Below are positions 2,978-60,576 of a DNA stretch of 64,000 bases, one piece after another. Source of the stretch: a virus. The first letter of the stretch is position 1. The number at the start of each line of letters is the position of its first letter. The notes beneath the pieces are model-generated. The model was not told the origin of the DNA, did not search any database, and saw nothing but the letters and a program-made list of their open reading frames with translations. Location of the stretch: positions 1 through 64,000 of IMG/VR virus record IMGVR_UViG_3300037245_001295. The stretch is one strand, 5' to 3'. A program made the position numbers and the translations under genes.

Positions 2978-3952
2978 GAATGATGGTATCTGTCATGTTG
3001 ATTGTGCCGGTTGGGACAGAACACCTGTCAATCCGTACAGTCCTACAAATCAGCACACCCCGCAGATGCCGCGTAGTCCTTGGGACTATACCAGCCAGAA
3101 GACCCGTAACGCCTGCACCAGTTAGAAGATTCCACCTATTCCTTAAATATTACCTAACTATTACATTCGTCACAACCCGCAGGGCTCATACAATCTATTT
3201 CTTCCCTACATTCTATCCAGCCCACCTGTCATTATAACCGATACTATCCGACCCCTAACGGCTATGAGCCCTGTAGGGCGCATACCGGTCCTCGGGGTCG
3301 TGCCGGTCGTGACGATCGCCGCGCCCGCCCGCCCCGACCCCGAGGACTCATACAATCATTATCATCATGCTGATCGTCGCGATCGGCACGACCGTCATAA
3401 CCGGACCCGCAGCCCGCCCCGCTCAGCAACCGGCACAACCGGTACAGGTGGCTATCTTTCCTGACCCCGAGGATCGTTGTAATCGGCACAATCACCACAA
3501 CCCGCAGGTGTCGGTATGATAGGTACAATCATCACAGCCTGCTGTATCAAGTATGTGGAGTGTCCCGGTTGTACCGGTGGTGCGGGTCGTCGGGGTCGTG
3601 CCGGTAGTAACGTGGTGCGGTGTGCCAGCGGCAGCCGGTTGTAGTGATGGTACTAGCTGTGCTAGCTGTGAGGATGGTGACGATGGTGCGGGTTGCGGGT
3701 GGGTTAAACGAGAGAGGGGTAACCCCACCCCCCGGTAGGGGTATCTACTAGCCCTCCTCGCGGTGCTGCCAGCCCTTTTTGAGAGTGTTGACGCGTCATC
3801 TACTCGCGGCCACCCCAGGCACCACCCGCAGGTGCCATAGAGTATAAGGCCTCGTTCGCGGCCACCTGAGGCGGGGGGTGGGGTCAAATCGGGCCGATGT
3901 TTCGCGGAGGCCATGAGCCCTGCGGTAAAGATCGGATTTTTTGTTTTTTCAC

Positions 3953-3981
3953 TTGACAAAGGTGGCCCGGTAGGGTATACT
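3953..3981 (+). promoter_or_regulatory. Sigma70-type early promoter TTGACA-17-TATACT
   Basis: Near-consensus -35/-10; member of a repeated family. Confidence 0.85.
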
Positions 3982-3987
3982 TGTAAT

Positions 3988-4563
3988 ATGAGCAAGAAGT
4001 ACCCGCGAACAAACGACCGGACGACCTGCACGAAGTGCAAAGAGGAGAAGGAAGCTACGGAGTTTTATTCCAAGCCCGAGAAGCGAAACGGCTTGCGAAG
4101 TGCTTGTATAGCGTGTGAAAAAATCAGAGATAAGGGTCGTCGGAAACACCCATGTTCCGAGAACCCGCAGGAGTGTGTACAATGCGGCGAAGTCAAGGCG
4201 GCAGCGGAGTTTGCCCTTTGTCCGGGAAATAAGAGTGGGCTGAGGGGCGAATGTATGGCGTGCGGCAGGATTGCCCGGCGAAGGCGTCTGTACGGAATCA
4301 CCCCCGAGACTCATTTGCGGATGCTTGACGCACAAAACTACGAGTGCATCTGTGGGAAACCCATTACTGTATCTGACGACCTCGACCACTGCCACACAAC
4401 CGGCAGGCTTCGCAACATTCTCTGCGCAGCCTGTAATCGTCTAATCGGGCATGCAAACGATGACCCCAACCTACTAGAGAAACACGCAGAGAATCTCCGA
4501 CAACACCAGCAACTCGAAGCCCAGGGCGTCAGCCAGTGGGGCTACGTCCCGGATTCCAAGTAA
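3988..4563 (+). CDS. Endonuclease VII-like (His-Me finger) nuclease with two N-terminal Zn-finger repeats
   Basis: LYGIT..QNYECICG..DHCHTTGRLRNILCAACNRLIG motif; CxxC pairs. Confidence 0.85.
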   Translation: MSKKYPRTNDRTTCTKCKEEKEATEFYSKPEKRNGLRSACIACEKIRDKGRRKHPCSENPQECVQCGEVKAAAEFALCPGNKSGLRGECMACGRIARRRRLYGITPETHLRMLDAQNYECICGKPITVSDDLDHCHTTGRLRNILCAACNRLIGHANDDPNLLEKHAENLRQHQQLEAQGVSQWGYVPDSK

Positions 4564-4590
4564 CGCCCAGAGTGTGGTATACTTGTAGTA
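4562..4590 (+). promoter_or_regulatory. Early promoter copy lacking TTGACA, extended -10 TGGTATACT
   Basis: AACGCCCAGAGTGTGGTATACTTGTA identical to the 4969-4994 copy. Confidence 0.6.
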
Positions 4591-4624
4591 GAGGAGAACG
4601 CAATGCACGTCAAGAGGAAGATAC

Positions 4625-4966
4625 ATGACACGTAAAGGTCTTTTGCCGCCGCACGAATGCTGGTCTCAATGGATCAATGGCATTGCCTCGGACAATGATG
4701 TCGATCGTCAGCGTATCATTGACCATATAAAGGTCCATGTTGAGCAACACATGCCGCCAAAAGACGCGCCAGCACAGCGTTGGACTCAGTGGCTTACAGG
4801 CACTTACAATCTGCTCGGCATCCTGCAACAACTGACGGCCGGTACGCCAACTTTTGCGCTTGGACTGGATCGCCTCTTTCGGAAATGGGCAAAAGACCCG
4901 TTCGATCATACACCACCACCAACAGGATTGGTAGATACCGTTCGCACACACTGCGAATCTACTTGA
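4625..4966 (+). CDS. Hypothetical early protein
   Basis: 113-aa ORF between two promoter copies. Confidence 0.7.
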   Translation: MTRKGLLPPHECWSQWINGIASDNDVDRQRIIDHIKVHVEQHMPPKDAPAQRWTQWLTGTYNLLGILQQLTAGTPTFALGLDRLFRKWAKDPFDHTPPPTGLVDTVRTHCEST

Positions 4967-4990
4967 CAAACGCCCAGAGTGTGGTATACT
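4963..4990 (+). promoter_or_regulatory. Sigma70-type early promoter TTGACA-16-TATACT
   Basis: Consensus boxes; repeated family. Confidence 0.85.
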
Positions 4991-5009
4991 TGTAATAGAG
5001 GATAACACC

Positions 5010-5228
5010 ATGTACGAAGAAGAGTTAGACAGATGGTTGGTGGAAGATCGCCCCACAAAGCACGAGCGGCTTTTTAGCGTTCTTGATAAGGTGAGTCGGG
5101 ACGAAAGCCTGTCACCTGCCGAACAGCAGCTATTAGACGACTACCGCGCAGCGGGTGGGGGCGCGCACGCTAAACGACATCGAGAACGCATGGACGCTTG
5201 GAAACGCGAGCGTCGGGATTCCAAGTAA
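5010..5228 (+). CDS. Hypothetical early protein
   Basis: RBS GAGGA, 72 aa, ends in shared DSK* junction. Confidence 0.75.
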   Translation: MYEEELDRWLVEDRPTKHERLFSVLDKVSRDESLSPAEQQLLDDYRAAGGGAHAKRHRERMDAWKRERRDSK

Positions 5229-5250
5229 CGCCCTGAGTAGGGTAACACAT

Positions 5251-5344
5251 GGGCGGGTGGCGAAATTGGTAGACGCACCCGGCTAATACTGGGTTAGGTG
5301 GTACGCGACCACTACGTATGCAGGTTCGAGTCCTGCCCCGCCCA
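5251..5344 (+). tRNA. Atypical tRNA-Leu-like gene (6-nt anticodon loop CTAATA, about 26-nt variable arm)
   Basis: GGGCGGG/CCCGCCC acceptor, Leu-type D arm GCGAAATTGGTAGACGC, T arm GCAGG-TTCGAGT-CCTGC, discriminator A. Confidence 0.7.
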
Positions 5345-5371
5345 CTTGACAAACACCCGCAGGAGAACAAC

Positions 5372-5725
5372 ATGACGCCCACAGAGACAGAAGTTCTAGC
5401 CCTTTACAAACAACTTGACCCGTCGCGACTGGCCGGCGAGACGATTGCATGTGTTTACCACGATGACTACACGCTCGTCATGGTCACTGAATCTGAAAAA
5501 TACGTCAAGTTGGGCGCACCTGATGACGACCGCCTTGATTTTGAATCACTCACCGTCCTCGATCTGAAATGCATGCGGCTAATCGACCTAGATACCTGGG
5601 AACAAATACTGGCCGAGCGAAAAACGAGCCAGAGGACGCGAAGGCGGTCTGATGCCGAAATCACCATAGCTCGACTCGTCTTAGAACATGGGGCCGACAC
5701 GATTCGAGACTTGATCCGAGAATAA
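5372..5725 (+). CDS. Hypothetical early protein
   Basis: AGGAG RBS before ATG 5372. Confidence 0.75.
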   Translation: MTPTETEVLALYKQLDPSRLAGETIACVYHDDYTLVMVTESEKYVKLGAPDDDRLDFESLTVLDLKCMRLIDLDTWEQILAERKTSQRTRRRSDAEITIARLVLEHGADTIRDLIRE

Positions 5726-5726
5726 C

Positions 5727-5882
5727 ATGAATGCTTTGAAATCCCATACCGTCTTGATCGAACCATGCGACGGCGGCTTTGTCACTGTCGAAGTTCGAGT
5801 TTACGAGGACGCCTGGATTGAATTGTTCTTTGACGGGCAGCTATTGCACAGTCGTCCAGCCCTGTCACGGGTAGCAGTATGA
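5727..5882 (+). CDS. Small hypothetical protein (51 aa, not in ORF track)
   Basis: Fills the gap exactly; ATGA overlap with next gene. Confidence 0.55.
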   Translation: MNALKSHTVLIEPCDGGFVTVEVRVYEDAWIELFFDGQLLHSRPALSRVAV

Positions 5883-6154
5883 TGAGACCTGTAATGAAGA
5901 AGATCATGTTGTGGACAGTTATTCTGGATGCTGATTATACAGCTTGGCAGCGGAATTTCATGTTTAAGCCCACGTTGATCGACCTCCTCACCATTGTGGA
6001 GGAACAAGCCCAGACCGCAGCAACGGCCCCGCTGTTGGAACTTGTGCGGGGGGCTCAGGGGGTTGACCCCGACATCCATGACTCGGGCAGCTTGACGTAT
6101 CATGCCGAGGGCGGCGTGATATTTATCTACCAAAATGAGGCCATCGCGAAATGA
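5879..6154 (+). CDS. Paralog family A member
   Basis: WTVIL..WQRNFMFKPTLIDLL pattern. Confidence 0.7.
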   Translation: MMRPVMKKIMLWTVILDADYTAWQRNFMFKPTLIDLLTIVEEQAQTAATAPLLELVRGAQGVDPDIHDSGSLTYHAEGGVIFIYQNEAIAK

Positions 6155-6741
6155 ATAACATGCCACCCCTATCAGAACTGATTGCGAGAGCGCGGCGAAA
6201 CCAAATCGTTGTCGGCCTGGACCTGCAACGGCTACTCGGGGAAGCCGAGCGGCTGCAAGAGATCGACCGCGAGCAATTGAAAGGCAAAGCCAAGGACTGG
6301 AAGATTCGCTTAGGCAATCTGGACATGATGGCCGGCGAGATGCTTAGCACCCCCGACGCCGAAGCACTACTCGCCAAGGCACAGGCAGCGAATCTCGCAA
6401 TCAACGAATTGCGAGATTCGCTCAATCTGGCAATATCTGGTGAGGTCGAGGTGCCCATCGAGGTGCCCATCGAGGAGATCAACACGCCAGTGTTGCATCG
6501 GCCGGGGGTGTGGATTACGCCAGTGTTGCAGCGGGCGGGGAGCCGCAAGCGGGAACTCTATAAGGTTCCAACAGGAACGGGTGGGGTTGAGTGGCTCGGA
6601 ACTGTGGTGCCAAACGGAGTCAGGTGGGATTGGTGCCGGCACAATTCAGAGGTATATGACTGGGACGGTGAGCGTGGCGGCACTGAGGACACCTTGGAGC
6701 AAGCGAAGGCCAAAGTCATGGAGGGGTGGGATTCCAAGTAA
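6151..6741 (+). CDS. Hypothetical protein, coiled-coil N-terminus
   Basis: 196-aa ORF, ATGA coupling, ends in shared DSK* junction. Confidence 0.75.
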   Translation: MNNMPPLSELIARARRNQIVVGLDLQRLLGEAERLQEIDREQLKGKAKDWKIRLGNLDMMAGEMLSTPDAEALLAKAQAANLAINELRDSLNLAISGEVEVPIEVPIEEINTPVLHRPGVWITPVLQRAGSRKRELYKVPTGTGGVEWLGTVVPNGVRWDWCRHNSEVYDWDGERGGTEDTLEQAKAKVMEGWDSK

Positions 6742-6768
6742 CGCCCAAAGCACCCGTAGGGGATCACA

Positions 6769-7032
6769 ATGATTGATAGGATTTTGCAAGATGGCTTCGG
6801 GATGATTACCTGCGGGGATCACCTCGGCGTCTTCGTCTCACCCCTCAGGCAGGTGGGAAGGACGCCTCCGGGGTGGGTCTTTGTACCGAGCGAGACAATG
6901 ACTGCTGAGATTCTGCAAGAGGCCATCGACTGTGCCAAGAGCGGCCGGTCGGACTGGCCCAAAGCAGAGAAGCAACCAAAGGCTAAGATAACCAACCGGC
7001 GGAAGAAAGCAGCGCACATCCGCAGGCTGTAA
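6769..7032 (+). CDS. Hypothetical early protein
   Basis: 87-aa ORF with GGGGA RBS. Confidence 0.65.
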   Translation: MIDRILQDGFGMITCGDHLGVFVSPLRQVGRTPPGWVFVPSETMTAEILQEAIDCAKSGRSDWPKAEKQPKAKITNRRKKAAHIRRL

Positions 7033-7040
7033 GATTCCAC

Positions 7041-7068
7041 TTGACAAACGCCCGCAATGTGGTATACT
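7041..7068 (+). promoter_or_regulatory. Sigma70-type early promoter driving tRNA-Tyr
   Basis: TTGACA-16-TATACT. Confidence 0.85.
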
Positions 7069-7081
7069 TGTAATAGAACAA

Positions 7082-7165
7082 GCGTCGGTTGGGCATTGGC
7101 AGGCCTCGCTGGCTGTAAACCAGTCATCCTTACGGATCGTGGCGGTTCGACTCCGCCCCGGCGCA
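7082..7165 (+). tRNA. tRNA-Tyr(GTA), CCA not encoded
   Basis: GCGTCGG/CCGGCGC acceptor, GCTGG-CTGTAAA-CCAGT anticodon arm, long variable arm, GGCGG-TTCGACT-CCGCC. Confidence 0.9.
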
Positions 7166-7184
7166 CTAACCCTTGGAGAATAAC

Positions 7185-7364
7185 ATGTTGATCGTTTACA
7201 CCGGCCTTGATGAAGTTTTGGTCTGTCTCAGTGTCCGCGAAGCCGAAATGCGCGCCATTTGGTTTGCACCTGGCGCAGGGCGGGATGTCGATGATTACGA
7301 CCGCGAGGTATCCTCCACAGGGATTGTGGCAATCTCTTCTCGAATGAGCGTTGATTTAGACTAA
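7185..7364 (+). CDS. Small hypothetical protein
   Basis: GGAG RBS; short ORF. Confidence 0.6.
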   Translation: MLIVYTGLDEVLVCLSVREAEMRAIWFAPGAGRDVDDYDREVSSTGIVAISSRMSVDLD

Positions 7365-7379
7365 CCCAAGGATTCAAAC

Positions 7380-7622
7380 ATGCTTCCTTATATCGCACTA
7401 TGGCTCGCTACCGTGCCAGTGGCCTACTGTCTATTTTACCTGATTTTCAAAAGGCTTGGTTCCTGGAGAAGGGGCGACGTAGTATATTTTACCCTCTTCT
7501 GCGTGGGCTTCGGCCCTGTCGCGCTGTTCATAGCTCTCAAGGAGTTGGCGGACATTTTCACTGCGAAACTAAGAATCCGTAAGGCCTTGTCCGACTGGGC
7601 GGGCCGCTTAGCAAAGTGGTAG
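7380..7622 (+). CDS. Small two-TM membrane protein, family M
   Basis: Two hydrophobic segments; starts MLPYIALWLA, ends W..R.AKW. Confidence 0.75.
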   Translation: MLPYIALWLATVPVAYCLFYLIFKRLGSWRRGDVVYFTLFCVGFGPVALFIALKELADIFTAKLRIRKALSDWAGRLAKW

Positions 7623-7651
7623 AAACCAACAGAACCCAAGGAGAACACAAG

Positions 7652-7891
7652 ATGCTTCCTTATATCGCACTATGGCTCGCCGCCGCAATAGCGGCCTACT
7701 ACCTGTTTCGCTGGGATTGTAAGACGTTTGCGATCTGGATAAACAGTGACGTAATATTTTTCAGCACCATCTGTCTGATCTTTTCCCCTGTCACATTGCT
7801 CGTAGCACTCGTGTGGACGGGCATCCTCGTTATGCAACGAAGTGCCGGAACGAGGTTGTCCAACTGGCTTGACCGCCCATCAAAGTGGTAG
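7652..7891 (+). CDS. Small two-TM membrane protein, family M
   Basis: First 29 nt identical to 7380 gene; ends WLDRPSKW. Confidence 0.75.
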   Translation: MLPYIALWLAAAIAAYYLFRWDCKTFAIWINSDVIFFSTICLIFSPVTLLVALVWTGILVMQRSAGTRLSNWLDRPSKW

Positions 7892-7901
7892 GGAGAACAA
7901 C

Positions 7902-8123
7902 ATGAACGACATCATCGAACTGTGTGACGAATTAGCGTGCAACTTCGCCTACAGCCACCGGCAAGATCGTCTACCGTGGGCGCAAACTCTATATAGACAT
8001 GTGTGGCGTATCGAGGGTGTCAGAGAAGGGGAATCAAATGACGGCCGATCCGAGAGCTTAGCGGATTGCTTACAAGGGTGCAAAAAGTGGTTGCTTCAAA
8101 TTAAGTCCAAGAGATTGGCTTGA
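7902..8123 (+). CDS. Paralog family C member
   Basis: IIELCDELAC..CLQ..LLQIK shared with 9519 gene. Confidence 0.7.
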   Translation: MNDIIELCDELACNFAYSHRQDRLPWAQTLYRHVWRIEGVREGESNDGRSESLADCLQGCKKWLLQIKSKRLA

Positions 8124-8147
8124 CAAACCCGCAGGATAGTGTATACT
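8120..8147 (+). promoter_or_regulatory. Sigma70-type early promoter
   Basis: TTGACA-16-TATACT, identical to 8649 copy. Confidence 0.85.
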
Positions 8148-8167
8148 TGTAATAGGAGGAGACGCGG

Positions 8168-8329
8168 ATGAATTACGTAGTAGCAGGGCTTGAAGGTGTT
8201 GGATTAGGCGTGTTGGCAGTCGTAGCCATCATTACCACCCCGATATGGTTGCCCCTTTGGCTCCTGGGCTATCGTGCGGCCCCGACCAAGTCTCAAATCG
8301 CAGAGCATATCGTAAGGAATTCGCGATGA
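8168..8329 (+). CDS. Small membrane peptide, family T (53 aa, not in ORF track)
   Basis: GGAGG RBS; TTPIWLPLWLLGY motif; stop overlaps next ATG. Confidence 0.7.
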   Translation: MNYVVAGLEGVGLGVLAVVAIITTPIWLPLWLLGYRAAPTKSQIAEHIVRNSR

Positions 8330-8652
8330 ACACAACAAAAATATGGCACGTCGCAGTCAAGACTGACTCAAACTTCAGGTGGCAGGGAATCTTTGCCTTT
8401 GAGCCAACTTTGCTTGACGTTGAAAGCGCCGTACACGGTGCCATCATTGCGGCCGACCTCAAATGTAAACGCAACCGCCCGCCCGATGAGTCTCTCCAGG
8501 AGTATTGGGAGTGTTTGAAGCGAGTCCGAGAAGTGTTGCTCCAGGCGAGTGATCTTTCTGATTACTCTAACTGGCACTCGGTTATGAATGGCCGAGTAGA
8601 AGTTGGCACCATCTATGTGTGGGGAGACAAACTATACACGGAATCCATTTGA
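8326..8652 (+). CDS. Paralog family A member
   Basis: WHVAVKT..WQGIFAFEPTLLDV..VGTI. Confidence 0.75.
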   Translation: MNTTKIWHVAVKTDSNFRWQGIFAFEPTLLDVESAVHGAIIAADLKCKRNRPPDESLQEYWECLKRVREVLLQASDLSDYSNWHSVMNGRVEVGTIYVWGDKLYTESI

Positions 8653-8676
8653 CAAACCCGCAGGATAGTGTATACT
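8649..8676 (+). promoter_or_regulatory. Sigma70-type early promoter
   Basis: TTGACA-16-TATACT. Confidence 0.85.
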
Positions 8677-8695
8677 TGTAATAGAGGAATTCGCG

Positions 8696-8941
8696 ATGAA
8701 CAGAACAAACACAATTTACCTAGTGACGCCTCCCTTTGAACGCCACGTGCTTGAAGGGTTCGCGACCGACGTTGAAGGTATCAAGCAGATTATGCGGAAT
8801 CACTACCACACGCACTTTGCCTACCCCAACATAGACGTGTCCATAGACATGGAAGCTTTGACCGTGACGGCGTCCGCACAACATTACGTGAAAATGTACC
8901 ACATCCGAGTAATCAAGAGGGCCGTATGCTCCACTGCATAG
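8696..8941 (+). CDS. Paralog family B member
   Basis: IYLVTP..LEGFATD.EGI..Y.IR.I. Confidence 0.75.
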   Translation: MNRTNTIYLVTPPFERHVLEGFATDVEGIKQIMRNHYHTHFAYPNIDVSIDMEALTVTASAQHYVKMYHIRVIKRAVCSTA

Positions 8942-9120
8942 AAATCACAGACGACTATCACATGGGCACGGCGGGGCGGCTTTGGGTATTCCTCGACATC
9001 GCGTCAGACATGTTCCTCAAGACGGACTGCGGGCGTCATGTGTTCAACCGCGAGGAGATCGAGGAGCACGCGCGAGTGTCAGAACTCAGGCGACTGATTT
9101 TTGGGGGAGAGAGAGTATGA
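8926..9120 (+). CDS. Small hypothetical protein
   Basis: 64-aa ORF coupled to neighbours. Confidence 0.6.
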   Translation: MLHCIEITDDYHMGTAGRLWVFLDIASDMFLKTDCGRHVFNREEIEEHARVSELRRLIFGGERV

Positions 9121-9374
9121 ACACCATCTACCTCGTGACGCCCAGCTTTTGCCACTGGGAGGGCAAGCTTGAAGGATTTGCGACCGATGCTGAAGGCATT
9201 GAGCAGATTGTCCAGGATCGCTACCTCAAACACTACCACTATCTCGGCCGTCAGCGTATCGGGCCAATCAACGTGCAAGTAGACATGTCTAAGTTCACAG
9301 TATTTGTGCGTGTGCCCAAGATCGGTCATAAACAAACCTACTACATCCGAGAGATCGGGAGAAAGATATGTTAG
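9117..9374 (+). CDS. Paralog family B member
   Basis: MNTIYLVTP..LEGFATDAEGI..TYYIREI. Confidence 0.75.
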   Translation: MNTIYLVTPSFCHWEGKLEGFATDAEGIEQIVQDRYLKHYHYLGRQRIGPINVQVDMSKFTVFVRVPKIGHKQTYYIREIGRKIC

Positions 9375-9514
9375 ACAAACTGTGGTATGACCTCCTGGGC
9401 AATGCGGATGATGTCATTGAAGATGTTCTTCACGGCGTCGGGGTAATTCTTCTCGTACTGACCGCGCCTCTGTGGCTACCGTTTTGGCTCCTTACCTACT
9501 TCATCAACAGGTGA
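9368..9514 (+). CDS. Small membrane peptide, family T (48 aa, not in ORF track)
   Basis: TAPLWLPFWLLTY motif shared with 8168 ORF. Confidence 0.65.
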   Translation: MLDKLWYDLLGNADDVIEDVLHGVGVILLVLTAPLWLPFWLLTYFINR

Positions 9515-9518
9515 TAAC

Positions 9519-9737
9519 ATGACGCCAGAGATCATCGACCTGTGCCTAGAGTTGGAATGCACCTGCTCCTACAACTGTGAATGGCAATACACGGACCGCC
9601 CTGTGCTAAAGCACTGGTGGTACATCGCCAGCATTAGGCCTCGGGAATCCAACTGTTCCATCAACGCCTGCCTAGACTCTTGCTTGCAGACGGCCTTGGA
9701 TTGTCTGAAACAGATCAAAGCCCAGAGGACGCCATGA
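9519..9737 (+). CDS. Paralog family C member
   Basis: IIDLCLELEC..CLQ..LKQIK. Confidence 0.7.
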   Translation: MTPEIIDLCLELECTCSYNCEWQYTDRPVLKHWWYIASIRPRESNCSINACLDSCLQTALDCLKQIKAQRTP

Positions 9738-9789
9738 CCGCAGATGAACTCCGACGCACGAAGGGCGAACGAGCCTGGAGGGACCAGTA

Positions 9790-10062
9790 ATGAACGTGTG
9801 GAAAATCTGCATCGAGACAGTTAATCAATTGTGGTGGCACGAAGCCCCCATCACACCTTGCTGGCAGTATATCCTAGCCGTGCTGCGGGAAGAAATGTCT
9901 GATGACAACAACCTGCACGAATCAATTGAACTTGTGCAATATCTTATGGTGTATCACAGCATAGGATTTGTGGGGACTACGAATAAGGAATTTGTCGCCA
10001 AGATCGCTGGCACCTGCGTCGGCACCGTTGAGATCAGGCGTGTAACGCGGGAGACGCTATGA
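9790..10062 (+). CDS. Divergent paralog family A member
   Basis: WKICIET..W..P..KIAGTCVGTV. Confidence 0.65.
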   Translation: MNVWKICIETVNQLWWHEAPITPCWQYILAVLREEMSDDNNLHESIELVQYLMVYHSIGFVGTTNKEFVAKIAGTCVGTVEIRRVTRETL

Positions 10063-10307
10063 TCGACGCCATCTATCTCGTGACGCCATCCAAGGGATAT
10101 TTGGATGACATTTTTGAAGGGTTCGCGGCCGGTGCCCGGGGCGTTGAGCGAATTGTGCGAGATCATTACCGCACGTATTCATACATCGAGTTGACCAGTG
10201 TGCGAGTCGATATGGACGAGCGTACAGTGGTAGCGATCGAGGAGGACGGCGACGAACGGACCTATTACATCCGAGAGATTAGGAGGCATGCTGATGAACA
10301 AGACTGA
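10059..10307 (+). CDS. Paralog family B member
   Basis: IYLVTP..FEGFA..TYYIREI. Confidence 0.75.
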   Translation: MIDAIYLVTPSKGYLDDIFEGFAAGARGVERIVRDHYRTYSYIELTSVRVDMDERTVVAIEEDGDERTYYIREIRRHADEQD

Positions 10308-10593
10308 ATTTTGGGTAATCCATGTGACGGTCCAGACACTATCGTGGGAAGGTAAATTCACGGCCCAGCCGAAGTTGCGCGATGTACTCGCCGCATTGAC
10401 TGAGGAAAATCTACGCGAACGATATGCCACCTTGATCGAACTTGTGGAATACACCATCAACGTTACCACGGGACACAGTGCGGCGTTCGCCCTCCCAAAG
10501 GCCGTGAAGATCGCGGGCTGTATAATCGGAACATTTGCCTCGCGGATAGACCGGGCGTACAACAACGACCTAGAACTCTCGGAGGCGTGCTGA
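10288..10593 (+). CDS. Paralog family A member
   Basis: WVIHVT..WEGKFTAQPKLRDV..KIAGCIIGT. Confidence 0.75.
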   Translation: MLMNKTEFWVIHVTVQTLSWEGKFTAQPKLRDVLAALTEENLRERYATLIELVEYTINVTTGHSAAFALPKAVKIAGCIIGTFASRIDRAYNNDLELSEAC

Positions 10594-10880
10594 TGGATAC
10601 TGACACAGTCTGGACGGTAACGATTAACTCGCTCGCCCCAGGCGCCCGTGCTTGGCAGCGCCGCTTCCTTGGTAAGCCGATTATCCACGACATCAGGGAC
10701 GCATTGGAACACGAGGGCAAACAGCCAGAGGGTTCGGTCGAAGTCTTCGCTGACCTTGCGTCCCGCCTGCCCGTGTGTTTTCACGAGAAGGCTATGAACG
10801 GCCGTGGCTACATTATCTATGCCGCCCAGGTCGAAATTGGCAGCGTCAGTCTCAAGGAGTGGGAGGTTTACACGCGATGA
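10593..10880 (+). CDS. Paralog family A member
   Basis: WTVTI..WQRRFLGKPIIHDI..EIGSV. Confidence 0.75.
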   Translation: MDTDTVWTVTINSLAPGARAWQRRFLGKPIIHDIRDALEHEGKQPEGSVEVFADLASRLPVCFHEKAMNGRGYIIYAAQVEIGSVSLKEWEVYTR

Positions 10881-11173
10881 GACGAGTGACTTACTGGAGA
10901 GTGATGGTCTACATCATAGCCTCACGCACGACTTGGACTCGGAGCTTCGGATTCAAGCCAATGATGGAGGACATCCTAAATGCCCTCTACGCAGAGTGGA
11001 ACGGAGGTGCGCCGTGGTCAAAGCTATGCCGCGACCTCAGGTTGTTTGTCGCAGTTGCCGACCGTGCCCCGTTCGATTTTTCCGACGACTCCGGCACCCA
11101 CTGTGTCGTAGAAATCGAGGACACCCCCGTTGGCCATATCCGCATGAAGAAAGAGGAGATGTACACACGATGA
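10877..11173 (+). CDS. Paralog family A member
   Basis: WRVMV..WTRSFGFKPMMEDI..VGHI. Confidence 0.75.
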   Translation: MRRVTYWRVMVYIIASRTTWTRSFGFKPMMEDILNALYAEWNGGAPWSKLCRDLRLFVAVADRAPFDFSDDSGTHCVVEIEDTPVGHIRMKKEEMYTR

Positions 11174-11481
11174 ACATACTACCGAGTAAGACTTACGTGT
11201 ATGAAGTGACCCTGGCGACGACTAACGGTCCAAACTGGACCCGAAGCTTCACGTTCGACCCGACCCTAGCAGACATCGTGGCCACGTTGAAACTTGAGGT
11301 GAAGTATTCAACCTTCTGCGCTATTGGGCGATACCTGAAACGGCTGATTGAGCTAATAGATTACATCCCCAACGGGTCGAACTGGGCGGTGCGAAGCGTT
11401 CCCTACGCTATCAGTGCTGTCGGGACAACGCTCGGAACCATTTATCGCAGTAAAACGGAGGCGTACGAGAAATGCAAGTAG
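11170..11481 (+). CDS. Paralog family A member
   Basis: YEVTLAT..WTRSFTFDPTLADI..LGTI. Confidence 0.75.
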   Translation: MNILPSKTYVYEVTLATTNGPNWTRSFTFDPTLADIVATLKLEVKYSTFCAIGRYLKRLIELIDYIPNGSNWAVRSVPYAISAVGTTLGTIYRSKTEAYEKCK

Positions 11482-11798
11482 CAAAGACGTGGAAAGTTTC
11501 TGTCGCGACAGTCCACAACGGCGAGTGGAAGGGGATATTCCTCTTCCAACCAACCAGTCAGGATGTGATAAACGCCATCTCAGGCGTCATCACAGACGGG
11601 CAGCGGGAGTTGGAGCGGTGCGATCCCGGAGACGCGGACGAAGTTGAATCCTATCAGGAACGTCTACGGCATTTGCGAGACGTGGCGCAGCACGCGATGC
11701 ACGGCTTCGCGAACACGGAAGTCCGTAAGCGGATTCTCGTAGCGGGCACCCTTGTTGGAACCATCCGAGTATCCTTTGAACGAGCGTTTATCAAATGA
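11472..11798 (+). CDS. Paralog family A member
   Basis: WKVSVAT..WKGIFLFQPTSQDV..VAGTLVGTI. Confidence 0.75.
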   Translation: MQVAKTWKVSVATVHNGEWKGIFLFQPTSQDVINAISGVITDGQRELERCDPGDADEVESYQERLRHLRDVAQHAMHGFANTEVRKRILVAGTLVGTIRVSFERAFIK

Positions 11799-11944
11799 AC
11801 AACAGCAACACGAACGTAATAGTACAGTCTGTGATCGACTTGGCCAAGGCGGCTAAGCTAGCCTTGGAGATCGTGTATGAGAGAGAACAGGCCCGCCTGG
11901 ACAAAGCCATCGCGGATGGCGAGGAGCTATTGAAAGATGCCTGA
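11795..11944 (+). CDS. Small helical hypothetical protein (49 aa, not in ORF track)
   Basis: ATGA coupling to upstream gene; fills the gap. Confidence 0.55.
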   Translation: MNNSNTNVIVQSVIDLAKAAKLALEIVYEREQARLDKAIADGEELLKDA

Positions 11945-12245
11945 ATTCGAGAAAGACCCCAGCGGACAGGCGAGTTGCCGCAACCGCGTAGTATGCAACG
12001 ATGATCCGTGGTCCAAGGATGACTGTGCGAAGTTCAAAAGATACTGCCGCTACAGCGAGGACTGCCGAGTCCCGATCCCGGTGAAAGAGGGGATTAAGGT
12101 GGAAATACCGCCGCGTGACTGGCTGCTGGCACGATTAGGGGCCACGGGCGGAATCGCCCCAGAGTATGGCATCGCCATGCTGGACAGAATCGAGCAACTG
12201 GAACGTGACCTGGGGGTGGCAAATGAAACCAGCAATCGCACATAA
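11937..12245 (+). CDS. Cys-containing hypothetical protein, family D
   Basis: SCR.R..DDP..C..C.Y.EDCRV.IP shared with 12543 gene. Confidence 0.7.
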   Translation: MPEFEKDPSGQASCRNRVVCNDDPWSKDDCAKFKRYCRYSEDCRVPIPVKEGIKVEIPPRDWLLARLGATGGIAPEYGIAMLDRIEQLERDLGVANETSNRT

Positions 12246-12546
12246 GGTGACTGTCTCCACGCGGGGCGGCAATGTATGGGCCGGGCGATTCGTGGGGAAA
12301 CCGACGCGCAAAGACGTAGTCGCCGCCATTCAGTACGGCATTGACGCAGTCGTGAAGAATTTGGGTAAAAAGTGCGGGGACATAGGTTACTATACGTGGC
12401 GGCTGCGTGAGGCTTTGGAGATCATGGCGAATGCACCGTCCTACTTCGCCATGGATGATCGCGAGTACAGAATCGAGGTGGGAGCCACTTTGATCGGGAC
12501 GATTCAAACCCTCAGGTGTACGGTGTATATTGAGGACGCAGAATGA
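12223..12546 (+). CDS. Paralog family A member
   Basis: HKVTVST..WAGRFVGKPTRKDV..VGATLIGTI. Confidence 0.75.
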   Translation: MKPAIAHKVTVSTRGGNVWAGRFVGKPTRKDVVAAIQYGIDAVVKNLGKKCGDIGYYTWRLREALEIMANAPSYFAMDDREYRIEVGATLIGTIQTLRCTVYIEDAE

Positions 12547-12866
12547 TCGAACATCAACAAGACGCCGATGGAGTCGTAAGTTGCAGGTACCGACTACCGC
12601 CGGACGACGACCCCAACACAATAGGGTGGTGTATGTTGCGTAAGGAACCCTGCCAGTATTGCGAGGATTGCCGAGTCACGATCCCGACAAATCTCTCGCT
12701 GGTAGTCAATGCAGCGGAGGAACTGGTGACGGCTTCGCACGAGCTTGTGGAGATCATGGTGGACCTGGGCTACGACCGCGAGGGAAGCTGCCGCGAAGAC
12801 TTGGACGCAGCACGGAAGGCACTGACCACTGTCAAAGCTATCCTCAAACATCAGGAGGAAGCGTGA
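12543..12866 (+). CDS. Family D mosaic protein
   Basis: N-half like 11937 gene, C-half like 15140 gene. Confidence 0.7.
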   Translation: MIEHQQDADGVVSCRYRLPPDDDPNTIGWCMLRKEPCQYCEDCRVTIPTNLSLVVNAAEELVTASHELVEIMVDLGYDREGSCREDLDAARKALTTVKAILKHQEEA

Positions 12867-13001
12867 ACGCCACCGAGAGAACGAAGTTCCGAAAGCATCT
12901 GGAGTGGGCCACTAAGATCGTAGCAACGTGGCCGCCCTGGAAGCGCAACCTGCTGGAGGACAGTCTGAAATCAACATGCCCGAGACGCGAGGGAAGATAC
13001 A

Positions 13002-13966: not shown

Positions 13967-14175
13967 AACATGCAGAACCCACAGTCGATCACTTAGAGCG
14001 AATAGCCGACTACGAAACTACATCCGTCTACAACTTCATATCACTGCGGCATGTGCTCGACTTCTTTAAGGAGCGGGGGGTTGATCTTGACGACGTCTTT
14101 ATCGAAGGCTCATACGGCGGAAGCAGCCCTACTGAGGACGACTGCCCGGTATTTACTTGGAGGCACCCACAATGA
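13963..14175 (+). CDS. Small hypothetical protein
   Basis: ATGA overlaps on both sides. Confidence 0.6.
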   Translation: MKHAEPTVDHLERIADYETTSVYNFISLRHVLDFFKERGVDLDDVFIEGSYGGSSPTEDDCPVFTWRHPQ

Positions 14176-14690
14176 ACATCATCCAACATGCCGCACAGCT
14201 TGCAAACGCCTTGCACAGAGGGCAGACCCGAGCCTGCGGCGAGCCTTACATTAACCACCCGCTGCGGGTGGCCGGAGCGGTGACGCTCCTCGACGATGCC
14301 ACAGAAGATATGATCGCGGTGGCGTGGCTCCATGACGTGTATGAAGACACCCTCTTCAGCGCGCCGTCATTGGTGAATCCTTTCGGCCATCCCGTAAATG
14401 AGATGGTCGTAGAACTGACGAACAGGTTCACCAAGGAAGCCTTTCCAGCATTAAACCGTGCGAAGCGGAAGGCGTCTGAGACTTGGCGTCTGGCTAGCAT
14501 CCCGCCGCAAGCACAGATCATCAAGCTCTGTGATCGCATTGACAACCTGAGGACAATCGGAGCCAAGGGGCGGGGGTTCGCGTTGCTCTACTGTGACGAG
14601 AGTGACGCCCTCGCGAAGGCACTGACCGCTGCTCCAGACCTCCAGGAGGAAATTTTCAAACTTACCCAGGAGCTTAGAGCCAATGGATAA
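14172..14690 (+). CDS. HD-domain small alarmone hydrolase-like protein (RelA/SpoT/Mesh1 type)
   Basis: H.GQ.R..GEPYI.HP, LHDVYED and IKLCDRIDNLR motifs. Confidence 0.9.
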   Translation: MNIIQHAAQLANALHRGQTRACGEPYINHPLRVAGAVTLLDDATEDMIAVAWLHDVYEDTLFSAPSLVNPFGHPVNEMVVELTNRFTKEAFPALNRAKRKASETWRLASIPPQAQIIKLCDRIDNLRTIGAKGRGFALLYCDESDALAKALTAAPDLQEEIFKLTQELRANG

Positions 14691-16361: not shown

Positions 16362-16898
16362 ATGAGTAGAACCGATCCCAACGACCCCCGTCGCTGCGAA
16401 GCGACCACCCAATCGGGTCAATGTGCCCATCAAGCTGTTGATGGGCAGAATCTTTGCGCCTACCACATGAAGGATCGCGATGTAGAGGACAAGATGTCTC
16501 TGCGTAGCTACATCCTCACAGACACGGTGCTGGCGGAGTCTGCCGGGCGTCATAGTCAGGTCGAGGAACTGAAATCCCTCCGCGAAGAAATCGCTATCTG
16601 CCGCTCCCTTGTCGAGCGGCGTTTGAATATGATCGAGAGCAACGCCGATTTGCTGGCCGCAGTCGGGCAGGTGAACTCGCTCTTTCTCACGCTTGAGAAA
16701 CTCATCTCAAGTTGCCACCGGCTGGAGACCAGCCTTGGCACATTGCTTTCCCGATCCTCTCTGCTGGAACTTGCGAAGGGTATCGTGGGCACCATCATGG
16801 ACGAGTTGGAAGGCATTGATAACTACGAGGAGATCGTTGACACGATCAGCGAGAAAATCCTTAGGCAGATTGCCAGCTACGACCCTGACGAGAAGTAA
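16362..16898 (+). CDS. Putative terminase small subunit
   Basis: N-terminal RCxA..G.C..C..H Zn motif then helical region; first gene of late operon. Confidence 0.5.
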   Translation: MSRTDPNDPRRCEATTQSGQCAHQAVDGQNLCAYHMKDRDVEDKMSLRSYILTDTVLAESAGRHSQVEELKSLREEIAICRSLVERRLNMIESNADLLAAVGQVNSLFLTLEKLISSCHRLETSLGTLLSRSSLLELAKGIVGTIMDELEGIDNYEEIVDTISEKILRQIASYDPDEK

Positions 16899-21696: not shown

Positions 21697-22356
21697 ATGC
21701 CACAATCAACGCCCGAATCCAAATTTCCTGATTCAGTCTGGGATGGCCTTACATCCACCACAGAGGATGTCAGCGTTGATAAGACCCCTGATAACGTAAT
21801 GGGCAACCGGCTTCGGGCGGAAATCCGTGGCGTTGAAACGTCCATGCAGCCTTTCATCGCGGACCTTACGGTCATCAACACGTACGGCTCTCCTGCCACG
21901 GTGCTGACGGTAAACGCTCTCGGCACAGGGCTCGAATGGGCGGCTAGCAGTGGTGGTGGTGGCAGCGTCATCGAACTGACAAATGACAACGCAGGGACGC
22001 TGGTTATTGGCATGGCCGTCTACGTGAAATCGGACGGCGACATGGACAAGGCGCAAGCCGATGCGGCCGGGACTACGGAGCTTCTCGGACTCGTGGCAGA
22101 TACGACCATTCTCACAACTGCGGACGGCGACGTGCAGGCCGATGGCTTCCTGGAAGCGACCACAGGCCAGTGGGACGCAGTCACAGGAGATGTGGGCGGG
22201 CTGACAGCAGGGGGCATCTACTACTTGGACCCCGACACGGCGGGGTTACTCACCAGCACAGCCCCAACCACAGTAGGACAGTATGTTGTACGTGTGGGTC
22301 AGGCGATTAGTACAACGGTAATGAACATTCGCATCGAGCAACCGATACTGCTATGA
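21697..22356 (+). CDS. Capsid fibre/decoration-like protein
   Basis: G.AVY..A.A..GL..GLTAG..YYL..G.LT.TAP..VG.A pattern. Confidence 0.6.
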   Translation: MPQSTPESKFPDSVWDGLTSTTEDVSVDKTPDNVMGNRLRAEIRGVETSMQPFIADLTVINTYGSPATVLTVNALGTGLEWAASSGGGGSVIELTNDNAGTLVIGMAVYVKSDGDMDKAQADAAGTTELLGLVADTTILTTADGDVQADGFLEATTGQWDAVTGDVGGLTAGGIYYLDPDTAGLLTSTAPTTVGQYVVRVGQAISTTVMNIRIEQPILL

Positions 22357-23480
22357 CATACATAAAACCCTTAGTAACATCGAACGGTAGGTTGGAAGCA
22401 CTCGCTGCTGGCGATTTTGTCAGCCCCGGCTCCTTCCCCCTGTGGGATACGGACGCCCTGGCTTGGACTGCCTTCAGAGAAGCCCTCAGCAATTGGATTC
22501 CGATCCATCGGCCGCAATGGACTAAGAAGGGTGTAGAGCTTGGGACCGTTGGTGCGGGCTCGGATGATTGGTACGGCGGGGTTGTAGCTCCCAACGGTAT
22601 CATCTACGGGATTCCCTACGATAGCACCACAGTGCTCAAGATAGACCCGAGCGACGATTCAACCTCGACCTTTGGCAGTATTGCTGGCGGCGCTAAGTAT
22701 GCTGGCGGCGTCCTTGGCTCGGATGGCCTCATCTACTGCATCCCGTATGATGCGACGGCTGTGAGGAAGATCGACCCAAGCGACGACTCGATGGCAACCA
22801 TCGGCACGCTCTCTGACTCCGCGATGTACTTTGGTGGTGTGCTGGCTGCCACGGGGGTCATCTACGGAGTGCCGCATGGTCAGGCGACTATTTTGAAGAT
22901 TGACGGTGACACCGTCACGGAAATCGGCACCATCGCGGGCGCAGGTAGTAAGTACGCCGGGGGTGTGTTAGCACCAAATGGCCTCGTCTATTGTATGCCT
23001 TACACCAACACCGACATTCTTACGATTGACCCGTCAGACGATTCAACCGCAGTCTTTGGCACCGTGGCTGACGGCACACACATGGGCGGCGTGCTAGCCC
23101 CGAACGGCTGTATTTACTCGCCACCGTACGGAGCCACATCCATCCTCAAGATTAACACGCACGATGACACCTTAACTGAGTTCGGCACCTTCAGCAGTAG
23201 CGCGATGTATGTCGGAGGGGCTTTGGCACCGAACGGCAGAATCTATTGTGTTCCGAGAGATGAGAACACAATTCTTGAGATTGATCCCGAGACAGACACA
23301 TATACCGAGTGGGCTGACTTCGGTGAGACGGCTAATAAATGGGTTGGTACTGTACTTGCACCCAATGGCTGCATCTACGGCATCCCGGCCGATTTCACGA
23401 CCTTCCTAAAGATTGGTGAAAACTTGGACAGCGTACTGTTGGATCAAGTGTTGTCACGCCACAGTAACAACGCGATATGA
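22353..23480 (+). CDS. Seven-repeat beta-propeller protein 1
   Basis: 7 copies of GG(V/A)LAPNG.IY.IP-like repeat. Confidence 0.8.
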   Translation: MTYIKPLVTSNGRLEALAAGDFVSPGSFPLWDTDALAWTAFREALSNWIPIHRPQWTKKGVELGTVGAGSDDWYGGVVAPNGIIYGIPYDSTTVLKIDPSDDSTSTFGSIAGGAKYAGGVLGSDGLIYCIPYDATAVRKIDPSDDSMATIGTLSDSAMYFGGVLAATGVIYGVPHGQATILKIDGDTVTEIGTIAGAGSKYAGGVLAPNGLVYCMPYTNTDILTIDPSDDSTAVFGTVADGTHMGGVLAPNGCIYSPPYGATSILKINTHDDTLTEFGTFSSSAMYVGGALAPNGRIYCVPRDENTILEIDPETDTYTEWADFGETANKWVGTVLAPNGCIYGIPADFTTFLKIGENLDSVLLDQVLSRHSNNAI

Positions 23481-23490
23481 GGGTGGAAAC

Positions 23491-23733
23491 TTGAACATAT
23501 ACAAAGTGACCCATGAAGAACGTTTGGCGATAGAAGCCTTGAACGAGGTAAGCACCAACAACCTAGTCATCGTATGTGACACTGAGGAACACGGCTGCGT
23601 TATCTGTGCGGACGACATCAACAAGCCCGTATTCGTTGAGCATCGTAAACTACTGCCCCTTACTTTGGATTCAGCAAAGATTGTCGAGCTTGTCGAGCTA
23701 ACAGGGATAGATGACGTAGAGCCCAAAAAATGA
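23491..23733 (+). CDS. Small hypothetical protein
   Basis: Between propeller genes; TTG start inferred. Confidence 0.55.
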   Translation: MNIYKVTHEERLAIEALNEVSTNNLVIVCDTEEHGCVICADDINKPVFVEHRKLLPLTLDSAKIVELVELTGIDDVEPKK

Positions 23734-24872
23734 CCTACCATAATCCACTAACGATTTCCGACGGCGGTTTGCAAAAGCTCCAATCAGGAGACTTGGTAGC
23801 CAAGGGTGATTTTCCGGCCTGGGAAACCGATGCGCCGGGCTGGGACCAGATGCGGGAAGCGATTAGTGTACGAGCCGGAGCAGGACGCGCTCAAATGAGT
23901 CTCACCACATCGACGTTCGGCACCTTAACAGCCAGCGATCAAGCCGCCGGGTGCGTGCTAGCTCCTAACGGCTACATTTATGGTATCCCCTTTGATGCGG
24001 GCGTTATGATGAAAGTAGACCCGTCCAATGATACGGCGTCAACATTTGGTAGCCCAGGGGTTGCAGGCTCAAAATGGTGCGGCGGCGTGTTGGCCCCCAA
24101 CGGCGTAATATACGCCCCGCCTTATCATAACGGTACAATTTTCAGACTAGACACCAGTGACGATTCGTTCACGTCATTTGGCTCATACCCTGGGACACAA
24201 CAATATCTCGGGGCCGTGCTTAGCGATGCTGGCAAGGTCTACTGCATCCCGAACAACAGTGAACGGGTTATAAAGATTGATCCCAGCGACAGTGATTCAC
24301 ACGGGCTAGTTGGCACTACTTATCCAGCAGCGGGTTTGAAGTGGAGTAGTGGAGTTTTGGCCCCGAACGGGTGTATTTACGGCATACCGAGGAACTGGGC
24401 GGGAGTTCTAAAGATAGACACCAGCGACGATACGACTTCTACAGTTGGTACCCTTTCTAGCGACGGCGAGAAGTGGTGGGGCGGAGTCTTAGCCCCCAAT
24501 GGCTGCATCTACGGGATTCCATATTACGCTACCTCCGTCCTGAAAATTGACCCCCGTGACGATACGATCACTACCTTTGGCAGCCTAAGCGGCGCTGCTA
24601 AATGGAAGGGCGGTGTGCTGGGTTCAGACGGTTGTATCTACGGGGTTCCGTGGGCTAGTCAAACCGTCCTGCGAATTGATCCAACCAATGACACAGCCAC
24701 CACATTTGATGCCTTAGAGGCAGGAACCCAGAAGTGGTGGGGCGGCGCACTTGCACCTAACGGTGCCATTTATTGTGTACCGCACGACGCAAATTACGTG
24801 TTAAAATATGGCACCGGAGTGTCGGGCGTGTCCGAGGATTTCTGCCTATCACGGTACTTCAACAAGCACTAG
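23730..24872 (+). CDS. Seven-repeat beta-propeller protein 2
   Basis: 7 repeats; N-terminus paralogous to 22353 gene. Confidence 0.8.
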   Translation: MTYHNPLTISDGGLQKLQSGDLVAKGDFPAWETDAPGWDQMREAISVRAGAGRAQMSLTTSTFGTLTASDQAAGCVLAPNGYIYGIPFDAGVMMKVDPSNDTASTFGSPGVAGSKWCGGVLAPNGVIYAPPYHNGTIFRLDTSDDSFTSFGSYPGTQQYLGAVLSDAGKVYCIPNNSERVIKIDPSDSDSHGLVGTTYPAAGLKWSSGVLAPNGCIYGIPRNWAGVLKIDTSDDTTSTVGTLSSDGEKWWGGVLAPNGCIYGIPYYATSVLKIDPRDDTITTFGSLSGAAKWKGGVLGSDGCIYGVPWASQTVLRIDPTNDTATTFDALEAGTQKWWGGALAPNGAIYCVPHDANYVLKYGTGVSGVSEDFCLSRYFNKH

Positions 24873-33937: not shown

Positions 33938-34027
33938 AGAAAGGGGTCACGGCAATATCCAATGTAGGATATTGAACTGTTGTCACCGCCCAGTATGGGC
34001 AAAAGTAACCAATTAGGAGAAAGCACT

Positions 34028-44981: not shown

Positions 44982-44995
44982 TTCTCTCCCTCGGT

Positions 44996-45033
44996 GAGCC
45001 TTGGCGCGAGACTTCTCGCGTCAGGGCTCTTTT
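44996..45033 (+). terminator. Hairpin/terminator
   Basis: GAGCCTTGGCGCGAGA..TCTCGCGTCAGGGCTC then TTTT. Confidence 0.75.
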
Positions 45034-45050
45034 CAAGACAAGGTGCTGAT

Positions 45051-60471: not shown

Positions 60472-60544
60472 GGCGCGGTCGTCCAGTGGACCAAGACTCC
60501 GGGCTTTCATCCCGGCAACCGGGGTTCAATTCCCCGTCGCGTCA
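60472..60544 (+). tRNA. tRNA-Glu(TTC), CCA not encoded
   Basis: GGCGCGG/TCGCGTC acceptor; CCGGG-CTTTCAT-CCCGG; CGGGG-TTCAATT-CCCCG. Confidence 0.92.
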
Positions 60545-60576
60545 CTCACAGTAATTTAACCTCAGGAGAGAAGAAA

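Follow-up and report, generated by a model that had tools for sequence, protein, structure and literature searches.

Nine strongly diverged copies of one gene, to which we refer as family A, lie in positions 1 to 64,000 (called the window below) of the 124,740-bp IMG/VR virus record IMGVR_UViG_3300037245_001295. Their products belong to a genuine protein family, not described before, whose members are small (85-130 amino acids, aa), soluble and encoded by environmental tailed phages. Because its conservation is scaffold-like, its helical hairpins are paralog-specific and stable within lineages, the paralogs are old, their location is accessory and the promoters in front of them are of host type, we tentatively favor a function as early, non-enzymatic binders, each with its own partner, a reading whose chances we put a little short of even. 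The nine genes are listed with their stop codons included, together with the isoelectric point (pI) of each product and the E value of the leave-one-out trial described below.

5879..6154, + strand: copy 1, 91 aa, pI 4.9, the most diverged copy, with short helices (E 1.1e-6)
8326..8652, + strand: copy 2, 108 aa, pI 5.5 (E 3e-11)
9790..10062, + strand: copy 3, 90 aa, pI 5.2 (E 4.6e-5)
10288..10593, + strand: copy 4, 101 aa, pI 5.6, first gene of a tandem (E 5.5e-9)
10593..10880, + strand: copy 5, 95 aa, pI 5.9, 1-nt overlap with copy 4 (E 3e-9)
10877..11173, + strand: copy 6, 98 aa, pI 7.8, ATGA overlap (E 9.4e-11)
11170..11481, + strand: copy 7, 103 aa, pI 9.1, ATGA overlap (E 1.2e-11)
11472..11798, + strand: copy 8, 108 aa, pI 6.9, with a long helical hairpin (E 4.5e-16)
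12223..12546, + strand: copy 9, 107 aa, pI 9.0, between two Cys-rich genes of another family, E (E 1.7e-12)

Membership and relatives of family A

A preliminary description of this DNA had grouped the nine open reading frames (ORFs) into one unrecognized family, and both parts of that claim hold. When a hidden Markov model (HMM) built from eight members was run against the 853 six-frame ORFs of at least 40 aa in the window, the omitted ninth member was recovered directly after the eight training members in 9/9 trials, with E values from 4.6e-5 (copy 3) to 4.5e-16 (copy 8). The top non-member found by the full HMM among these ORFs had an E value of 0.2, and a search of the whole 124,740-bp record returned exactly nine matches and no tenth copy. 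Profile-profile comparison of sub-clades, a check proposed at the outset, gave scores of 71.5-96.5% (E 3.6e-5 to 8.7e-10): 96.5% between the copy 3/copy 4 clade and an acidic outside clade (E 8.7e-10, 89 columns), 94.8% between the copy 1 and copy 3/copy 4 clades (E 4.9e-8, 58 columns) and 71.5% between the copy 1 clade and a further outside clade (E 3.6e-5, 42 N-terminal columns). These leave-one-out statistics, together with the relatives in other contigs, rule out that the ORFs arose by chance on the coding strand.

The sequence motif noted earlier proved to be correct. W19 is present in 69/74 aligned sequences, F23 in 71/74, P27 in 73/74 and D31 in 49/74, and the glycine of the I-G-T-I strand in all 74/74; in the copy 8 protein the motif residues are W7, V9, V/I11, T13, W19, F23, P27, D31 and I-G-T-I at 95-98. 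The five-gene tandem of copies 4 to 8 (10288-11798) is translationally coupled, as had been suggested, with overlaps of 1, 4, 4 and 10 nt and GGAG-type Shine-Dalgarno sequences within the preceding gene. Copies 1, 2, 3 and 9 have ATGA-style overlaps with neighboring genes, copy 1 at both neighbors, copy 3 with a family B gene at 10059, and copy 9 by 23 nt with the gene at 11937-12245 and by 4 nt with that at 12543-12866. Copy 2 is the second gene behind the promoter at 8120, and its stop codon lies inside the -35 hexamer of the promoter at 8649. Copy 1 is the outlier of the set, with the full HMM spanning only positions 1-78 of 98; its true start may be at 5894, since the sequences of its relatives start opposite its M6.

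When 1.84 billion representative proteins were searched with a profile, 79 hits were obtained at E <=1e-3, 18 of them at E <=1e-10. Six are the window's own proteins, two were taken as false (long repeat proteins) and 71 are relatives, one of which, P0080, is 75% identical to copy 8. Nearly all relatives measure 85-130 aa. Two of them, P0038 and P0044, are fusions with two family A domains in one chain, and four others have C-terminal tails without a Pfam domain; likewise, the extensions of the long relatives P0025, P0031, P0038, P0044, P0048, P0051, P0060, P0061 and P0062 contain none. A translated search (tblastn) of 50,697 phage records with copy 8 as its only query gave two chance rows (E 0.3), pattern scans of IMG/VR with copy 8, P0007 and the A3 sub-alignment found no relative, and metagenome scans found none with P0009 and eight loci with the A3 sub-alignment.

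No match to family A was found in Pfam, PHROGs, NCBIfam, PADLOC or the PDB sequences. For the nine members, the best E values were 0.041 in Pfam-A and 0.024 in PHROGs v4, each in 1/9 and not significant, and 0/9 matched PADLOC 2.0. Among the 74 aligned members, no Pfam-A family occurred in more than one member (best E 0.0052), and PHROGs v4 and NCBIfam 20.0 gave two and three families, respectively, each in one member. The best Pfam candidate, DUF7716 (PF24832), was rejected: it matched P0025 only, with 17.5 bits (E 0.0052) against a gathering score of 26 bits, and its model finds nothing in the window phage's genome even at E 10. The 74-sequence profile returned seven rows from 177,635 PDB sequences, with E values of 0.64-7.6, and no anti-defense or defense family matched in the libraries searched. 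Our search of the literature on paralogous early phage gene families found no paper on such a family among the 10 of 86 matches listed, an absence that is unprovable for a family without a name.

Predicted fold, conservation and age of the paralogs

AlphaFold2 models were built for copies 8 and 1 on one 74-row family alignment. As the preliminary description anticipated, the two modeled copies have a common predicted fold, with elements in the order beta-beta-alpha-alpha-beta-beta. The copy 8 model (predicted local distance difference test, pLDDT, 95.4; predicted template modeling score, pTM, 0.85) has strands at 2-13, 18-23, 85-90 and 93-107 and helices at 29-49 and 52-73; the copy 1 model (pLDDT 94.6, pTM 0.82) has the same element order with helices of 11 and 13 residues, versus 21 and 22 in copy 8. 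In the predicted fold, the N- and C-terminal beta-hairpins would form one four-stranded sheet on which the intervening alpha-helical hairpin packs. The hydrophobic core would be carried by the sheet and the helix bases, leaving the hairpin, above all its tip, to vary in length and sequence. A homodimer prediction for copy 8 scored 0.29 (mark 0.42) and carries no weight either way.

Only M1, W19, F23, P27 and G96 are conserved in at least 90% of the 74 sequences. The remaining conserved positions are alternating hydrophobics in strands and helices, apart from four polar ones: T28 and D31, where helix 1 begins, E/D39 (58/74) and E/D/Q70 (64/74). Judged from the alignment, this pattern marks a scaffold and not an active site. 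The hairpin tip (columns 45-62) is filled in only 31-81% of sequences and is rich in D and E. The family has a median pI of 5.2, with 28/74 below 5, 11/74 above 7 and net charges down to -17; the window nine range from 4.9 to 9.1, and four of them lie at 6.9-9.1.

The earlier suggestion of a conserved scaffold with a variable helical middle fits the identities among the window paralogs (36 pairs), which fall from 0.30 in the N-terminal sheet to 0.20 in helix 1 and 0.05 in the tip (79% gaps), with 0.17 in helix 2 and 0.22 in the C-terminal sheet. Between each window paralog and its own-clade relatives (24 pairs), the corresponding values are 0.55, 0.47, 0.45, 0.49 and 0.49, so that here the helical region is conserved like the sheet (0.45-0.49 versus 0.49-0.55). 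On these sequence comparisons, it is the helical hairpin that sets the paralogs apart, each lineage retaining its own version.

A maximum-likelihood tree (84 rows, 102 columns, quick search) was computed with support from the Shimodaira-Hasegawa-like approximate likelihood ratio test (SH-aLRT) only, and many of its deep forks are unresolved. Six own proteins, the window-derived P0082 and P0083 and the two false hits were excluded, and the fusion proteins P0038 and P0044 were placed as halves. The nearest neighbor of a window paralog is never another window paralog. Copy 1 groups with P0081, P0045, P0036 and P0068 (SH-aLRT 100), copy 3 with P0034 (99), copy 4 with P0014 and P0021 (97), copy 6 with P0006, P0008 and P0015 (99) and copy 7 with P0009 (98); copy 5 falls in a clade of six (95), copy 9 pairs with P0010, its nearest relative (96), and copies 2 (83) and 8 (90) group with relatives from other contigs. 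Since every paralog is placed with relatives of its own on other contigs, the expansion is old, and a recent duplication burst is ruled out by the tree. Duplication has been repeated elsewhere, as in P0038, whose two halves are closest to one another in the tree (SH-aLRT 98). The relatives of copies 4, 6 and 8 share the same longest contig size (9,558 nt), as do those of copies 7 and 9 (9,417 nt), which makes shared contigs likely, so that other phages probably carry a family A array.

These results speak against the earlier proposal that the family was expanded to hit many variants of one host target. The paralogs sit in separate clades of their own, the helical region is as conserved as the sheet within clades, and the pI values spread from 4.9 to 9.1. 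Paralogs that are old and keep separate, stable partners fit this pattern better than does a recent burst in an arms race against a single target.

Structure searches gave few leads. Foldseek with the copy 8 model against PDB and BFVD found nothing at E <=1e-3, with template modeling (TM) scores of at most 0.42, and fold searches with this long-helix model return mainly helical-hairpin alignments at background level. A feature search of the ESM Atlas with copy 8 and P0054 gave no usable hit, the Atlas's own models being poor (pLDDT 0.51 and 0.45). The fold is probably undescribed. For the short-helix copy 1 model, one structure stands out in two programs: the archaeal ribosomal protein aL45 of the Sulfolobus acidocaldarius 50S subunit (PDB 8hku, chain L45A), for which Foldseek gave E 1.3e-2 and TM 0.54/0.50, the next hit having a TM of 0.35. 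This likeness raises the idea that family A binds RNA or the ribosome and modulates translation, which we regard as very improbable. aL45 belongs to archaea and is embedded in rRNA, whereas family A proteins are encoded by phages and mostly acidic (the median pI and net charges given above), without sequence similarity to aL45 in the PDB profile search, whose seven rows (E >=0.64) do not include it. The copy 8 model matches it weakly, ranking the aL45 chain 15th with a TM of 0.31. An aL45-like arrangement in a predicted model does not show common descent or function.

Genomic setting, promoters and neighboring genes

The nine copies all lie within a block that is missing from the closest related phage record.

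5726..16361, + strand: accessory block of about 10.6 kb, holding all nine copies

In that related record, whose large terminase (TerL) is 88% identical, 387 nt separate the homologues of 5318-5725 and 16362-16898; the 10.6 kb with all nine copies are therefore absent there, and the record has 0 family A matches. Its gene order equals that of the window from 16.3 to 28.6 kb, up to TerL. Family A was found in 0/10 TerL-related IMG/VR records, of which two are 100% complete and eight are fragments (43-86% complete) and hence weak proof.

The genes of the block are preceded by a promoter repeat of about 45 nt that consists of TTGACA, 16 nt and TATACT followed by TGTAATAGAGGA. It occurs on the + strand at 3953, 4963, 7041, 8120 and 8649, these five having 11/12 consensus matches and conserved flanks; a variant without the -35 hexamer lies at 4578 (+). 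The consensus is of the sigma-70 type. All nine copies lie downstream of such repeats.

4963..4990, + strand: promoter with TTGACA, a 16-nt spacer, TATACT and TG before the -10, upstream of the operon with copy 1; about 45 nt of its flanks are common to the other repeats
7041..7068, + strand: promoter immediately in front of tRNA-Tyr 7082-7166 and the genes of families D and C
8120..8147, + strand: promoter before ORF 8168 and copy 2; 97.6% identical over 41 nt to the repeat at 8649
8649..8676, + strand: promoter, the last of its class before 77.4 kb

With no further repeat of its class until 77.4 kb, the 8649 repeat is the candidate promoter of copies 3 to 9. Across the whole record there are 15 near-identical repeats (TTGACA or TTGACT, a 16-17 nt spacer, TATACT and the same following sequence). 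Seven are in the window, at 3953, 4578, 4963, 7041, 8120 and 8649 (+) and at 1778 (-), and the others are at 77.4, 99.7, 108.8, 112.6 and 114.8 kb (+) and at 121.1, 122.3 and 123.9 kb (-). The whole-record scan found none between 8.7 and 77.4 kb, where the structural genes lie. Four repeats point leftwards, at 1.8 kb and at 121-124 kb. Going by this promoter layout, the contig ends appear to be flanked by an early region that is transcribed divergently by host polymerase.

The record is linear without end repeats according to IMG/VR and is estimated by CheckV to be 100% complete. A PHROG scan of the 43 large ORFs of the window assigned tailed-phage genes across it, among them the following:

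28612-30279: large terminase (TerL)
30276-32075: portal
33980-35446: major head protein
40111-44418: tape-measure protein, 1,435 aa

Beyond the tape-measure gene come a primase, a helicase and a ParB-like gene. The phage has no close cultured relative: megablast of 5800-12600 against the 50,697 phage records found no match, the most similar terminases are those of the SPO1 group (about 25% identity), and various siphovirus proteins match the head protein at 25-36% identity. The PHROG scan found no integrase among the 43 ORFs, and on gene content the phage looks virulent. That family A encodes virion or assembly components seems hardly credible. Nothing specific speaks for this beyond the position of the array on the strand of the terminase gene, 16 kb upstream of it, whereas the array is set apart from the structural module, lies behind host-type promoters not present in that module, and is missing from the phage whose terminase is 88% identical and whose morphogenesis-side genes are colinear.

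Among 28 ORFs that were scanned from 1.2 to 18.2 kb, an HD-domain protein was the only one to score above its Pfam cut-off. This HD_4 domain phosphohydrolase, at 14157-14690 in the same block (Pfam E 1.1e-13; PHROG 990, E 5.8e-32), could be a small alarmone hydrolase, HD_4 being the domain found in (p)ppGpp hydrolases. Between 7380 and 12866, the members of four other small paralog families, none of which matches Pfam or PADLOC, lie among the family A genes:

8696-8941, 9117-9374 and 10059-10307: family B, three copies (E 1e-10 to 1e-13)
7902-8123 and 9519-9737: family C, two copies (E 1e-7)
7380-7622 and 7652-7891: family D, two copies, hydrophobic and membrane-like (E 1e-13)
11937-12245 and 12543-12866: family E, two copies, Cys-rich (E 1e-8)

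The co-amplification of family A with the small membrane proteins of family D would suit a role in competition between phages, as weapons or as immunity (for example, superinfection exclusion), with another virus as the target. An accessory, strain-variable location, early-type promoters and a sporadic distribution among related phages point the same way. We nevertheless find this quite improbable, given soluble proteins without a recognizable effector domain or any PADLOC or Pfam match, in a phage that looks virulent.

Nearly all sampled sequence words of 7000-13000 occur in one run labeled marine sediment metagenome, possibly the one from which the phage comes, and small shares occur in two further marine sediment metagenome runs from other studies, short contigs of which cover parts of the family A array. 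One contig of run X2 spans 11442-11607 with 0 differences, across the overlap of copies 7 and 8. Other contigs of runs X1 and X2 join 4590 to 7081, 6154 to 7033, 8329 to 8935 and 8347 to 9529. These joins, with sides of 25-49 nt and likeness set at 80%, fall at gene-boundary or promoter-repeat positions; they hint at co-occurring variants without single cassettes, and they may also be repeat artefacts or come from other phages.

Several further features of the window were recorded. ARAGORN predicted a 95-nt tRNA with an undetermined anticodon at 5251-5345, overlapping the start of ORF 5318, the tRNA-Tyr at 7082-7166, 14 nt after promoter 7041, and a tRNA-Glu at 60472-60545. A direct repeat array of about 55-bp units (88-100% identical) lies at 2200-2500, upstream of an endonuclease VII-like gene at 3913-4563. 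There are two adjacent pairs of large paralogs, one at 22353-23480 and 23730-24872, which matches three tandem copies in the closest related record, and one at 44994-46088 and 46088-47146, both members of which match PHROG 2448.

Function of family A and comparison with known systems

We propose that these nine old paralogs, which lie in a strain-variable block of small genes and would be read from host-type sigma-70 promoters, are binding proteins without enzymatic activity that would be produced early in infection. The own helical hairpin of each paralog would bind a different partner in the infected cell, giving the proteins an accessory role in host takeover or counter-defense. The early timing, binding as the activity, and partners that belong to the host and not to the phage are what we infer; what the analysis itself shows is that the nine are one family with a predicted fold and a scaffold-like conservation, that they are old, that their block is accessory and that sigma-70-type promoter sequences lie before them.

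One outside clade, recovered with its DNA, suggests a different context. Seven of its eight loci (designated by L numbers) have a family A match and six have a single copy; L010 has a second, weak match just upstream (E 6e-4), and L016 has no HMM hit. In L010, L012 and L014, the family A gene overlaps the end of a directly upstream PF09414 RNA ligase gene (E 1.5e-23 to 2.8e-17) and is followed by genes for a membrane protein, an AAA_28 NTPase and an exonuclease-like protein, with a class II ribonucleotide reductase nearby. L011 and L015 begin inside an ORF at the ligase position, and that of L011 matches the RNA ligase region of the window phage. The phages of these loci share replication genes with the window phage at 25-66% identity. 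As a side observation, the L012 RNA ligase (7855-10008 of a 107-kb metagenome contig) is 717 aa long, versus about 361 aa in L010 and L014, with Intein_splicing and Hom_end_hint matches below the cut-offs and a LAGLIDADG endonuclease domain above its cut-off.

Such neighbors would be expected if family A proteins were accessory subunits of phage nucleic-acid enzymes, such as partners in RNA ligation or repair, serving the phage's own DNA or RNA metabolism. We consider this distinctly unlikely. All L loci are orthologous and so amount to one evolutionary observation, the window phage's RNA ligase (71,984-72,529) lies 59 kb from the array with no family A gene adjoining, and nine diverged copies in a dispensable block are hard to square with one enzyme.

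The proposal of early binders with separate partners has several points against it, of which the RNA-ligase context is chief, at least with respect to a purely host-directed role, even if it concerns one lineage and not several. There, in a distant lineage, family A is single-copy inside a replication and nucleotide-metabolism module, a context that looks more like that of a housekeeping partner of nucleic-acid enzymes than of a host-directed weapon. The sole whole-domain structural neighbor is an rRNA-bound ribosomal protein. The agreement of the two AlphaFold2 models is not independent because the same family alignment was used for both, and sequence matches between the copy 1 clade and other clades are confined to 42-58 N-terminal columns. 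No RNA run is listed as carrying 7000-13000, leaving promoter sequence as the basis of the putative early timing, and the binding and its partners are likewise putative.

A bolder form of the early-binder proposal is that family A is a modular, phage-encoded binder scaffold of orphan fold, its sheet keeping the shape and its helical hairpin serving for exchangeable recognition, the nine copies being standing specificities that each disable a different host defense or housekeeping protein. This is unlikely on present evidence; if true, it would add a new anti-defense or host-takeover superfamily with natural variants for specificity mapping.

One of the closest known parallels is the host-takeover module of Bacillus phage SPO1, 24 small genes in the terminal redundancy whose products, as outlined in one account, are little like characterized proteins, some of them inhibiting host replication, transcription, division or glycolysis (PMC10531801). 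Going by its sequence, the family A block would resemble it as a set of small genes without characterized relatives that have near-consensus host-type promoters. It also lies near a contig end behind such strong promoters, in a phage whose terminase is about 25% identical to those of the SPO1 group. The resemblance does not extend to the proteins, in that copy 8, as the sole tblastn query, gave no SPO1 row from a collection that includes SPO1. The SPO1 module is not known to consist of a single paralog family in nine copies. With regard to an SPO1-type terminal redundancy, the first 15 kb have no second copy in the 124,740-bp record, and assemblies usually collapse terminal repeats.

A second comparison is with small acidic phage decoy or mimic proteins such as Ocr and ArdA, and with SPO1 Gp44, which is reportedly a DNA mimic. 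Family A proteins are likewise small, phage-encoded and without an enzyme signature, and many outside relatives have a strongly acidic, D/E-rich tip and net charges to -17. Unlike these mimics, family A is not uniformly negative, four of the nine window copies having a pI of 6.9-9.1, and no protein of this kind was credibly matched in the fold searches.

Newly found inhibitors of bacterial defense and of core host machinery come mainly from among the small early proteins of phages. Most of these proteins are singletons and provide no handle on specificity. Family A offers several such handles: a confidently predicted compact fold without a characterized relative, nine long-kept paralogs, a clear split between scaffold and variable surface, and about 70 outside relatives that include natural two-domain fusions. 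In kind, it belongs to the clusters of small early accessory genes that, following the account of the SPO1 module, are well known from SPO1 and others (PMC10531801); what makes it unusual among them is that nine paralogs on one scaffold have been maintained for long. If the RNA-ligase link is true instead, family A would indicate an unknown component of phage RNA-repair modules. The nine paralogs and their relatives are a tractable set for learning how one scaffold is re-aimed at different partners, and they are reasonable candidates for anti-defense or host-toxicity screens.

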